From the NCBI RefSeq assembly GCF_006345805.1, contig NW_021827398.1:1-10452 (forward strand): a DNA stretch of 10,452 nucleotides, written 5' to 3'. The translations under genes were made by a program, and so were the position numbers. Positions 3,293 through 10,224 of this stretch are shown here, in pieces; position 1 is the stretch's first letter; each line of letters starts with the position of its first letter. This stretch comes from Octopus sinensis (taxonomy: Eukaryota). Below the pieces are notes generated by a model. It had not been told where the DNA came from, did no database searches, and saw nothing but the letters and a program-made list of their open reading frames with translations.

Positions 3293-3522
3293 ATTATAGT
3301 GAATCTAAAGAAACCGTTTCTTTAGACATATTATGAATCTGCGATAGGAATATTGACGGCGTTTCGTCATCATCTCTCCTGTTTTAAGCGAAAACCAACT
3401 CTATAGGAGATAAACAGGCCAACGGGAGTTTTCGGCATTGCAATGGCTTCCATTATAGAAATCAACAAGGAAAAGGAGTTTGGTAAACAGTTTAATATAT
3501 AATACGTTAGTGAATGTGAAGA

Positions 3523-3745: not shown

Positions 3746-3779
<34 letters not shown>

Positions 3780-3891
3780 CATATGCACACACACACACAC
3801 ATATGTATATTGTATACATATATATATACATACATACATCCATACCCATACATACTAATTATATATATATAATATTATATAAATAATAATA
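3746..3891. repeat. (TA)n/(CA)n/(TACA)n compound microsatellite
   Basis: Direct reading; it flanks fold-back element 1 on the left. Confidence 0.9.
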
Positions 3892-4053
3892 TAGGGAATA
3901 GATCCAAATTTCCAGGGAAAAAAAAATCAGATTTAGGATTAAATCCAATTTTATAGTAAAATATTATAAATATTATTAGAGACAAAACCACTATTTGCAA
4001 AACAAACAAGGAAGACTTAATCATAAATAAATTTTATAAATAGTCAAAAACCG

Positions 4054-4095
4054 CCACTACAATTGTTTCTTGTCTGATCGACAATCTTCAGGTGG
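4054..4095 (-). ncRNA. Minimal type I hammerhead ribozyme motif
   Basis: Minus strand reads CCAC CUGAAGA UUGUC-GAUCA-GACAA GAAA CAAUUG UA GUGG. Stem I is CCAC/GUGG, the CUGANGA and GAAA core is intact, stem II is 5 bp, stem III is the palindrome CAAUUG, and the cleavage triplet is GUA. The stem II closing pair is U-A instead of the usual R-Y. Confidence 0.72.
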
Positions 4096-4155
4096 ACTCA
4101 ATAAGTCAGTTTTCAATTATGAGACTTCCTAATTTGAAACTGACTTATTGGAAGT

Positions 4156-4197
4156 CCACCTGAGATTGTCGATCAAGACAAGAAACAATTGTAGTGG
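4156..4197 (+). ncRNA. Inverted copy of the hammerhead motif with a 1-nt core deletion
   Basis: CCAC CUGAGA UUGUC-GAUCAA-GACAA GAAA CAAUUG UA GUGG. The core is one A shorter than the minus-strand copy, by mutation or sequencing indel. Confidence 0.55.
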
Positions 4198-4296
4198 CGG
4201 TTTTTTTGACTATTTATTAAAATGTTATGTTGATTAAGTCTTCCTGTTTGTTTTGCAAAATAGGGGTTTTGTCTCTAATAATATTTTATATATATA

Positions 4297-4691
4297 TCTA
4301 TATATATATTATATATATATATAATAATAAAATCCGTTCGTCTGTCTGTCTGTCTGCTTTCTGAGGATCTGGGCATCCTCCATCCTATTGCGCTCAATTT
4401 GATATGTAGATACCGACGGTATCAGGGCGTGTATAAGTCTTGATAAAAATTACAAAAATCGATTCCAGGTGAGAATGCGATCGATAAAGCCGCGGGAACG
4501 TGAATTTGAAAAATCGTTTTTCTTGGAATAGTAAAAAAGTCTATCTTTATGTCTTCTTTTGCTGGTGTCTCAAATTAAGCTTAAATCAGTGTTTCTCAAA
4601 GGGGAGACCAATGGAACAGTCGGACAAGTTGTTTTGGGTTTAAATGTCTGACAACTGAGCACCGTCCATTGGACGGGGTGCGTTTTGGTCG
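4297..4691 (+). mobile_element. Probable non-autonomous Helitron-like element
   Basis: 5' A|TC start followed by (TA)n and a subterminal (GTCT)n tract. GC-rich 3' hairpin gcaccgtcca-t-tggacgg(gg)tgc at 4659-4681, about 10 nt before a GTCG|T end (degenerate CTRR|T). No TSD or terminal inverted repeat. Confidence 0.55.
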
Positions 4692-4694
4692 TAA

Positions 4695-4780
4695 ATATAT
4701 AATATATATATAATATAATATATATAATATATATATAGAGATATATATATATATATATATAATATAAATTAATAAATATA
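4695..4780. repeat. Imperfect (TA)n microsatellite
   Basis: Direct reading; it lies between the Helitron-like element and fold-back element 2. Confidence 0.92.
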
Positions 4781-5312
4781 AGGGTAGCAAAAAATTCTAG
4801 AAAAAATTCTCCGCTACCAGCGGTCTAGTGAGAAAGAAAGATAGTCAAAGACTATAATAATATCATTCAACAATATAAGGAATGGCCCTAATAGGCCATT
4901 CGACTCACTAGAAAGACCAGCCAAACTCAAACCGCTAAATAGTTGTAATTCTGAAATTGAAAGAGAAATAAAAAAACATTTACCCTTTTCATCTCTGGAC
5001 TATGCATAGTTTCGACAAACCGCGGTGGCGGTGGAGTTTTGAAAATTTAGAGCATATAGACTGGAGGCTTCGTTGCCGTCGCCTCGTGGACATATACTCG
5101 TCCTCGGCTTCTCTGCTGACGAGACACGCCAGTTGTAAATAAATCTAATTTAATTTAATTAAGTTTGTCGAAACTATGCGTAGTCCAGAGATGAAAAGGG
5201 TAAATGTTTTTATTTCTCTTTCAATTTCAGAATTACAAATATTTTGCGGTTTGAGTTTGGCTGGTTTTCTAGTGAGTCGAATGGCCTATTAGGGGCATTC
5301 CTTATATTGTTG
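4779..5312. mobile_element. Fold-back element 2: inverted arms 4868-5020 and 5163-5312 with a 142-bp spacer, carrying a hammerhead; probable Penelope-like or retrozyme-type remnant
   Basis: caacaatataaggaatg...tttcgacaaac is the near-exact reverse complement of gtttgtcgaaa...cattccttatattgttg. The left arm has an unpaired extension to taaggg at 4779. (TA)n lies on both sides. Confidence 0.78.
5110..5191 (+). ncRNA. Type I hammerhead ribozyme with canonical GUC cleavage site
   Basis: Stem I UCUCUG (5110-5115) / CAGAGA (5186-5191). Core CUGACGA (5116-5122). Stem II GACA (5123-5126) / UGUC (5166-5169) with a 39-nt AU-rich loop. GAAA (5170-5173). Stem III CUAUGCGUAG is self-complementary. GUC at 5183-5185, with cleavage predicted after 5185. 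Confidence 0.85.
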
Positions 5313-5366
5313 TATACATTATATATATATTATATAGATATTATATATATATATATATAATATATC

Positions 5367-5472
5367 TGAAAAAACAAGTCAAAATAGAAAATGCTAAAAT
5401 AATATTTTAGCATTTTCTATTTGACTTGTTGGTTTTTCATAATATCAACTCGTGTGTTCCTTTTCACCCTTA
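5367..5472 (+). mobile_element. Fold-back element 3: short palindrome 5367-5439 with an extension ending CCCTTA-(TA)n
   Basis: tgaaaaaacaagtcaaaatagaaaatgctaaaata-a-tattttagcattttctatttgacttgttggtttttca, centred on 5402. It is followed by a 33-nt unpaired tail ending ccctta (5467-5472) and then TA repeats. Confidence 0.6.
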
Positions 5473-5571
5473 TACATATATATATATATATTATTATACA
5501 AGGGTACTGCACGAGTTCCTGCATAGCAACAAAATAGAGTATATATATTAGGACTTGTCTTCTATACACAT

Positions 5572-6742: not shown

Positions 6743-7132
6743 GTGGAGGCGCAATGGCCCAGTGGTTAGGGCAGCGGACTCGCGGTCATAGGATCGCGGT
6801 TTCGATTCCCAGACCGGGCGTTGTGAGTGTTTATTGAGCGAAAACATCTAAAGCTCCACGAGGCTCCGGCAGGGATGGTGGTGATCCCTGCTGTACTCTT
6901 TCACCACAACTTTCTCTCACTCTTACTTCCTGTTTCTGTTGTACATGTATTTCAAAGGGCCGGCCTTGTCACTCTCTGTGTCACGCTGAATATCCCCGAG
7001 AACTACGTTAAGGGTACACGTGTCTGTGGAGTGCTCAGCCACTTACACGTTAATTTCACGAGCAGGCTGTTCCGTTGATTCGGATCAACCGGAACCCTCA
7101 TCGTCGTAACCGACGGAGTGCTTCCCCCTCCT
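6743..7132 (+). mobile_element. Full-length tRNA-derived SINE with 13-bp target-site duplication
   Basis: Pol III A box TGGCCCAGTGG (6755-6765) and B box GTTTCGATTCCC (6799-6810) in a tRNA-like head, followed by a body of about 320 bp. Exact direct repeats TTACATTCCTTGT at 6730-6742 and 7133-7145. Confidence 0.92.
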
Positions 7133-8635: not shown

Positions 8636-9677
8636 TTAAAGGTCATTATCACTTTAAAACCACCGAGTATTTCCCTTGTGCTACTTGATGTACTGAAGTG
8701 CAAGCTTATTATCAGGTATTTCACCTAATTTTTCCTGTTACTTCACCTCGCCCTCGTTCCTGATGTTCGGGCAGACGGTCCGTAGCCCTTGTCTCTCTCT
8801 CTATGTACAAAATACTTTACCTGATATCACCGAGAACTTCCCAAATAGTACTTCGAAGGTACAGATAAAGCCCCCTCTGCTTAAAAAAATTTAAAAAAAC
8901 CAGATAGATTAGCATTTTGCTTGTCCACTGCTACATAAGTTTTGATCAAGGAAATGCGGTCCTTACAAATATAATTTTTCTGCAGTTCTGTTTTGGATTG
9001 TCCATATTAAAGAATTCGATGATGGCTAAATTGCGTCAAAACTACCGTTTTCATGAATGCCTTTCTCTCTTGACAATGGTTGTGCTTCTCTGCAACAGTC
9101 AATGCTGTTGTTTTTGCTGTCGTCATCATTGTCGTCGTTGCTGAGTAAATTCTCAAAATAGACTACGACGGACATCTTTATTCTTTCGATAAATGTGTGT
9201 ATGTTTGCGTATACCCATGTGTGTCAGTGTGTCCGTGTGTGCATTGTTGCTATCAGTTTTGTTTATGCTGTGCAAATTTGCCTTTTGGGATATTAAATTC
9301 TGACATTCTATGCTTTCCAGTTTACCTGTCTCTTATTATCATTATTATTTTTCTTGTGATTTTTGCCATTTTGAAAATTGTGTTTACGTGTTTTTTCTTT
9401 TTATATATATTTCAATTTGTTTATTTGATGACTTCTACTGCGTTTATTCTGAGGGTGAGTCATCTCTAGTGCCACCACTTCTCTCTTTCATGTTTACGTC
9501 AGTCGATGGTTCTCTCGCTGGCGAAAACATTGTAACTATTGTAAACAAGATATAAAAATATATTGTCAAAAACTGATAAACCTTTCGGCTTTTTCATGTA
9601 TCGGTAGAGACAGTCAGACCTTCAGCAGATACTTGTTTGTAATATATACAATACACACATGCAAGCATGCATGCATA

Positions 9678-9937: not shown

Positions 9938-10224
9938 AATCACGTTGTCAGAAATATGAAATGTTTCTCCGATACATTTGATGATAAAGCAACATTTTAT
10001 AGATCGAACGAAACGGTGGAGTAAAAAGATTTTGAAGGAAGCATTAATCTTATCCTCCAAATCCGAAACGTTTCCACCTGATGAATCTCTGGTCATTAAA
10101 ACTCAGTATCTGTCATGTGATTTGGTTGAAATATCCAAACATGATCATTGGGAAATCCAACAATGCCATTCAAAAGCAATAATTATGGGGACAAAACGGA
10201 TGCATTCTGAGACACAGTAAGTGG

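Follow-up and report, generated by a model that had tools for sequence, protein, structure and literature searches.

Three fold-back insertions on an Octopus sinensis contig as probable twin-primed products of Penelope-like elements at (TA)n tracts

Three short inverted repeats (E1, E2 and E3) that lie close together on a contig of Octopus sinensis are short insertions, consisting of 3' ends, of three unrelated families of Penelope-like elements (PLEs), and each probably arose by two primings on sense RNA, at a distal (A) and a proximal (B) start site, at a (TA)n tract cut on both strands, with the two products joined head to head (a reading to which we give a probability of roughly 0.78). This reading draws on the family identity of the elements, the two fixed ends of each family, the pairing of A with B ends, the independent lengths of the two arms, the splice junction of E1 and the (TA)n flanks, all of which are observed in the copies described below. 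In terms of mechanism, we infer that the RT-endonuclease would cut both strands of a (TA)n tract, that TA primers would anneal to AU-rich start sites on the sense RNA, that one cDNA would be primed at A and another at B, and that the ends of the two cDNAs would be joined head to head to give an inverted repeat whose one-sided tail equals the A-B distance. Each insertion would leave (TA)n on both of its sides as the next target, making the growth of clusters likely.

The window (the whole stretch of DNA analysed, 10,452 nt) is an entire unplaced contig of 10.5 kb from a genome of 2.7 Gb. Its relevant features, in window coordinates, are as follows.

3746..3893: (TA)n-rich target tract; more tracts at 4287-4323, 4695-4766, 5320-5365 and 5471-5491.
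3883..4124, minus strand: E1 main arm, a spliced pseudo-LTR of a PLE that is Hydra-type by its motifs, with the distal site A end lying in (TA)n; aligns to exon 1 plus exon 2 of the parent L193 without the intron.
3883..3964, minus strand: E1 tail, equal to the A-B distance (82 nt in the parent).
4058..4091, minus strand: candidate E1 type I hammerhead (CUGAAGA..GAAAC..GUA), helix I 4 bp, helix II 5 bp; from the descriptor scan.
4099..4110, minus strand: E1 spliced exon-exon junction in the main arm; in the other arm at 4139-4150, plus strand.
4125..4290, plus strand: E1 inverted arm, with the proximal site B end; one base is missing from its hammerhead core (4160-4193).
4315..4692, plus strand: unrelated interspersed repeat between E1 and E2 (TC start, GTCT repeat and a hairpin at the 3' end), from a comparison of the ends of 8 copies.
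4768..5020, minus strand: E2 arm with the site A end, starting inside the hammerhead.
5021..5312, plus strand: E2 arm with the site B end, part of a 470-nt non-coding tandem unit.
5116..5185, plus strand: candidate E2 type I hammerhead with a long loop 2 (CUGACGA..GAAAC..GUC), helix I 6 bp; from the descriptor scan.
5362..5401, minus strand: E3 inverted arm, with the site B end.
5402..5478, plus strand: E3 main arm, the last ~75 nt of the pseudo-LTR of a PLE that is Neptune-type by its motifs, with the site A end and a 34-nt tail; aligns to the 3' end of the parent L133.

The inverted arms of E1 (3961-4122/4127-4295), E2 (4853-5020/5163-5325) and E3 (5360-5401/5403-5445) are identical at 154/159, 157/163 and 39/40 aligned bases, respectively. 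As described in an earlier note on this DNA, the three elements share no mutual homology (shuffled sequences reach the scores of their cross-alignments 13-165 times in 200), each has a one-sided tail (~73, 89 and 33 nt), CCCTA or CCCTTA is present at 3892, 4779 and 5467, and both arms reach (TA)n. The 142-nt spacer of E2 is assigned to its short-tail arm, so that the E2 arms do not form a simple hairpin, and its B arm extends ~150 nt further 5' than its A arm. The abundant repeat at 4315-4692 (1516 first-look candidates) is a neighbour that stands outside the PLE system, and by its end features we take it to be Helitron-like. At 5495-5560 (minus strand), a fourth stretch terminates in CCCTTG plus AT-rich bases beside a TA tract, and a DNA search with it matched only itself; the sequence at 6744-7125, judged by eye, is presumably tRNA-like and of SINE type. 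Comparison of four contig sets with window positions 3860-5500 gave no piece covering the whole stretch and nothing decisive.

DNA searches returned 1100 (E1), 2658 (E2) and 722 (E3) first-look candidates, from which 40 candidates were scored per search and 30 loci were fetched per family. A hammerhead descriptor matched the window at two places only, viz. 4091-4058 (minus strand) in E1 and 5116-5185 (plus strand) in E2, against a background of 0.045 hits per shuffle (200 shuffles), and it is intact in 55 of the 65 E1 copies and 23 of the 28 E2 copies that span the motif. The E3 family gave 46 descriptor hits; its hammerhead has a U3-A8 core, a minimal variant described previously (PMC4209133), and sits further upstream than the window copy of E3 reaches, this copy being without a ribozyme. 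An Rfam scan of the window yielded 70 matches at E<=1, which were microsatellite-driven only and included no hammerhead. The motifs of all three families are candidate ribozymes for which self-cleavage is predicted from sequence. Partial hammerhead-like cores were also seen by eye at 3340-3375 (minus strand), 9565-9625 (minus strand) and 10065-10150 (plus strand), where the full descriptor failed; these are possibly decayed PLE ends. Together with the parent elements described below, the descriptor hits agree with the earlier assignment of the cluster to a hammerhead-bearing, Penelope-like class.

Each family has two fixed AT-rich ends, the distal A and, 34-99 nt upstream of it, the proximal B, the distance between them being 82 nt in E1, 87-99 nt in E2 (where it is blurred by TA-like sequence) and 34 nt in E3. 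The earlier note had taken CCCT(T)A as the terminus, but the copies share 6-11 further element bases past this motif (to 3883 in E1, 4768 in E2 and ~5478 in E3), in agreement with the read-through sequence of unbroken parents. A (TA)5 tract is present within 50 nt after the long arm in 26/28 copies of E1, 24/27 of E2 and 27/29 of E3, i.e., in 77 of 84 distinct copies (window copies excluded and duplicates collapsed) compared with 103 of 1602 background windows (6.4%), which bears out the preference for (TA)n that had been proposed; two of the three E2 copies lacking (TA)5 read through into the next unit. The inverted arms stop at the fixed site B, and maps of the arms in the collected copies show turning points that are highly variable in E2 and E3, as would be expected from the variable inversion breakpoints that had been suggested. 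The ends of E1, E2 and E3 abut across short TA tracts at other loci as well (L016, L051, L052, and L059), and serial insertion into each other's flanks is therefore common. Other recurring ends at TA tracts include those of a hammerhead-like family without CCCT (L012, L143, L194, and L197) and of another family with CCCT plus ~12 bases (L012, L085, L087, and L248).

Longer copies of E3 continue into an ORF with RVT_1 and GIY-YIG domains. The complete parent recovered by our search (L133) consists of an inverted truncated copy ending at B, a pseudo-LTR (pLTR), ORF1 (437 codons from stop to stop), ORF2 (784 aa; Pfam RVT_1, E=3.5e-8, and GIY-YIG, E=3.8e-4), a second pLTR and (TA)n, and L138/L139 represent tandem E3-family units of 4.4 kb. 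The parent protein has the motifs GLKF and DKG, a CX4CxxC linker, CCHH and, at the C-terminus, GIY-YIG; among the query and 120 homologues, the Neptune-type linker is present in 121/121 and the GIY-CxxC-YIG pattern in 117/121. E3 is a truncated tip of an autonomous element that its motifs mark as Neptune-type, an assignment that derives from these motifs and may not separate Neptune from Nematis. In L133:3105-6706 and L131-L139, ORF1 and ORF2 overlap in the -1 frame, and the slippery heptamer U-UUU-UUA is identical in 8 copies; ORF2 of the parent has AUA, overlapping the ORF1 stop, where several relatives start with Met, and no stimulatory structure was found 3' of the slippery site (-1.8 kcal/mol).

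The parent of E1 is a different element. L193 (7.3 kb) comprises a pLTR, an ORF, a long 3' UTR, an intron and a pLTR, and the ORFs of L193 and L197 contain DKT, a CxCX5C linker, and terminal CxxC and CxH, no CCHH, and KWK in place of RWK. These proteins gave no match to an RT or GIY-YIG family in Pfam; the parent protein agrees by eye with a published alignment of the Hydra clade (PMC8557442), and 48 relatives were found. E1 is a truncated tip of an autonomous element that we assign to the Hydra type, the clade being read from motifs by eye. Further Hydra-like families, with 31-51% protein identity to the E1 parent, are present at L228:400-1500, L229:5475-6627 and L230:1227-2116. The ORF at L197:1070-2863 has a long asparagine-rich stretch between the RT and the endonuclease, a position in which such a stretch has been reported for rotifer Penelope elements (PMC3846280).

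In unspliced copies of the E1 family, the pieces of E1 are split by an intron of 1.1-2.8 kb that ends in AG (13 arms read). The donor at the junction is GT in 10 of these arms and GA in the other 3, which have GT 4 nt downstream; 2 copies have been spliced from a second donor lying 4 nt downstream. Exact matches to the spliced junction number 403, and only 13 of them extend 9 nt further upstream; intron-retaining (13 arms) and spliced (403 matches) copies thus coexist in the family. Because the window E1 is without an intron that other copies have kept, it is a spliced retrocopy that has passed through RNA. An intron ending just before the hammerhead has been described for Penelope of Drosophila virilis (PMC4209133). 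The transcript probably starts just upstream of the spliced junction, at the shared 5' stop (a predicted start ~20 nt upstream of the splice donor), and such a start would account for the two E1 arms stopping at the same place in a near-perfect hairpin, both cDNAs having probably run to the 5' end of a short spliced transcript. A fixed 5' end for the whole E1 family was considered and rejected, for most copies run on upstream and the fixed end belongs to the spliced copies only. Apparent read-through of E1 at four places was likewise discarded, as it traces to another, LINE-type RT fragment beside one duplicated insertion; at L170-L174, the E1 tip and this fragment are duplicated inside a tandem cluster of C2H2 zinc-finger genes. 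Seven of 29 E1 copies are without an inverted arm. At L168 (G000:C13:70713872-70716907, minus strand), the final 40 nt of the E1 tail are repeated ~34 times head to tail between TA tracts, in an array that ends at site A, owing either to reiterative copying or to later satellite growth; the 17 matches to this 40-nt array all fall at this one locus, and reiteration is therefore not general.

E2 alone among the three is non-coding, and the earlier proposal of several non-autonomous families finds no support in E1 and E3, which are truncated tips of autonomous elements. Copies of E2 read through site A into the next unit, the unit measuring 435-526 nt (~470 nt in 7 of 10 loci), with one hammerhead, 36% GC and a strong predicted fold as a circle (z = -6.8, 40 shuffles). 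A tblastn search with the E1 and E3 parent proteins found no match in the E2 loci L031-L060, and partial searches (viz. with the read-through pattern, which gave 15 matches, by tblastn of both parent proteins, and in three neighbouring Hydra-like loci) did not find an E2 parent. These characteristics fit a non-coding, retrozyme-like unit that would borrow its enzyme in trans; animal non-LTR retrozymes have been proposed to be non-autonomous PLE derivatives (PMC7229834). Our best guess for the donor is a Hydra-type element, because E2 has a long tail and, by eye, 17 of 20 bases in common with E1 at site A.

In the fold-backs, unlike ends are paired. Among the 17 E1 fold-backs selected by their centre, 16 are A+B, one is interrupted and none is A+A or B+B, a result whose chance under independent choice of ends is at most 0.5^16. 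The same is true of copies selected by similarity (n=87), where each of the 47 whose inverted arm is complete is A+B. One E1-family locus, the long L192/L193, is A+A and counts against strict pairing. For E3 arms selected by their endonuclease (n=30), 12 end at A and 15 at B (A and B ends in this part of the analysis being classed from alignment end positions, 242-267 as A and 146-166 as B). When 16 B-ending arms were followed upstream, 12 had no inverted partner, 3 had an A partner and 1 was tandem, and in the three with a partner (two of them probably duplicates) the A arm measures 183-443 nt versus 2.2-2.7 kb for the B arm. A short A arm in any single copy could be a later deletion. Among ten A-ending arms there was one with a B partner, and three showed partial inversions. 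Microhomology could be cleanly resolved at 7 of 23 joints, where it amounts to 0-3 nt, and no target-site duplication or empty site was readable in the flanks, which consist of (TA)n.

The inverted arm could alternatively be a copy-back product of the same PLE families, in which a single cDNA started at A would snap back or change template, serve as its own template and, after resolution, end at B. Related proposals for PLEs are self-priming with an antisense template (PMC3846280) and endonuclease resolution of the tail (PMC8557442). Copy-back likewise predicts A+B pairs, and the near-perfect palindromic centres of E1 and of the window E3 fit a snap-back, as does the greater likeness of arms within than between copies (0.5 vs 1.4%, 1.9 vs 3.9% and 0.4 vs 1.6% divergence in 16, 6 and 8 copies, respectively), which later conversion would fit as well. 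However, copy-back cannot yield B ends that occur alone or B arms that are longer than their A arms (window E2, L065, L081, L269, and L273), in places by kilobases, and these observations argue for twin priming rather than for one strand folding back; the sense-strand splice junction present in both E1 arms argues further against an antisense template. We therefore consider copy-back unlikely, and template switching, which the earlier note had invoked, finds no support as a general rule, though copy-back may still explain some of the short, symmetric copies. Ordinary MITEs, whose terminal inverted repeats are flanked by TA duplications of the target, would also appear as short inverted repeats within TA-rich sequence; we give this reading almost no weight, for the ends are asymmetric and the centres variable, fixed symmetric repeats with a constant internal part are absent, many copies have no inverted arm, and copies extend into RT genes or tandem units or have had an intron removed. 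Fold-back chimeras from library preparation or assembly might be suspected where the window is a whole unplaced contig whose copies have more small indels than others, but the same site B stop recurs at dozens of loci within chromosome-scale contigs, no mirroring is seen in the flanks and the two arms diverge by 3-4%, making an artefact highly improbable. The earlier view of the elements as neither MITEs nor artefacts is thus upheld.

As a further alternative, all three elements could be non-autonomous and depend on one enzyme with CCCT(T)A beside (TA)n as its recognition site; a common enzyme acting at (TA)n had been proposed in the earlier note. In its favour, CCC followed by T(T/A)A occurs just inside site A in 3/3 families and at site B in none, and at other TA tracts, after removal of the three families, CCCT exceeds AGGG immediately before the tract (64 vs 19 of 722 junctions, compared with 47 vs 49 further away). 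This proposal is very improbable, since E1 and E3 have their own parents in different PLE clades, whose proteins align with E=0.018 at best, so that the motif cannot mark one enzyme common to them, CCCT(T)A is internal to the end, the skew is general for CCC over GGG (135 vs 65), the family copies are non-independent, and another hammerhead-bearing family ends without CCCT(T)A. The sequence pattern is suggestive, CCCT(T)A being at most a candidate recognition signal, and at low odds the motif may be an old start-site signal. A more elaborate and unlikely version of this idea is that CCCUWA inside the distal start is a telomerase-template-like signal kept across the Hydra and Neptune clades. 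A dimeric RT would use CCCUWA for one strand of the target and the proximal site for the other, so that two cDNAs of a single RNA would heal a break in (TA)n, and it could also reiterate (as at L168). The E1 signal reads CCCUAA, which is one reverse-complement TTAGGG repeat.

How PLEs form inverted repeats and tails has been named as an open question (PMC8557442). The class and the architecture of the elements studied here are already known and the families are new Hydra-type, Neptune-type and retrozyme-like ones; the value of this work lies in the evidence that pairing and splicing provide on PLE inversions. The genome contains thousands of similar copies from two clades, in which splicing, A+B pairing and unequal arms point to twin priming on sense RNA, and exact start sites are now available for an in vitro test. 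Annotation tools could, in addition, mistake such short inverted repeats with TA flanks for MITEs. A narrow literature search, confined to sources other than subscription papers, found no relevant paper on twin priming for PLE inversions, which is weak evidence of novelty.

The characteristics of E1-E3 are in large part those described for endonuclease-containing (EN+) PLEs, viz. 5' truncation, partial tandems, an inverted truncated 5' copy, a tail on one arm, a pLTR hammerhead motif and AT-rich or (TA)n targets (PMC3846280; PMC8557442; PMC11167929), with the tail again equal to the distance between two fixed ends. EN+ traits present in our copies include RT plus GIY-YIG (E3 parent, by Pfam) pseudo-LTR tandems, truncation and inversion (L133, L138/L139, L193, and L196/L197), and copies that retain an intron (E1 family). 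The 34-nt tail of E3 is inside the published range of 30-40, whereas those of E1 (82 nt) and E2 (87-99 nt) are longer. The PLE of Anolis cuts and extends both strands in vitro, and two RNA start sites delimit its tail (PMC11167929); its start sites are non-homologous to the target and show no strand difference, whereas those of E1-E3 resemble the TA target. Strict pairing of one A with one B end is a feature of the copies studied here that is not stated in the text of the PLE papers examined.

At the level of clades, the E1 parent shares with the Hydra clade, including Hydra-1_Obim, DKT, CxCX5C, the absence of CCHH, CxxC plus CxH close to the C-terminus, a C-terminal endonuclease, a hammerhead and (TA)n as target (PMC8557442). 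It differs in its pLTR intron, its N-rich insert and KWK for RWK, and its unit of 7.3 kb, reached through a long 3' UTR and the intron, exceeds the <3 kb that is general in the clade as a tendency and not a rule (PMC8557442). Hydra-1_Obim itself is a different family, as five short motifs of the E1 and E2 families are absent from the portion of the supplement examined (PMC8557442). The E3 parent agrees with the Neptune clade in GLKF, DKG, CX4CxxC, CCHH, C-terminal GIY-YIG, the 34-nt tail and the U3-A8 minimal hammerhead, and differs in a separate ORF1 that overlaps ORF2 in the -1 frame (PMC8557442), a figure legend of the same paper noting some PLEs with a frameshifted ORF1. E2, lastly, resembles animal non-LTR retrozymes (PMC7229834; bioRxiv 10.64898/2026.07.22.740005) in being non-coding and arranged in tandem, with a single type I hammerhead in each unit; its unit measures 470 nt versus ~300 nt in those elements, and, unlike them, its dispersed copies show inversions and the A and B ends typical of PLE insertions.
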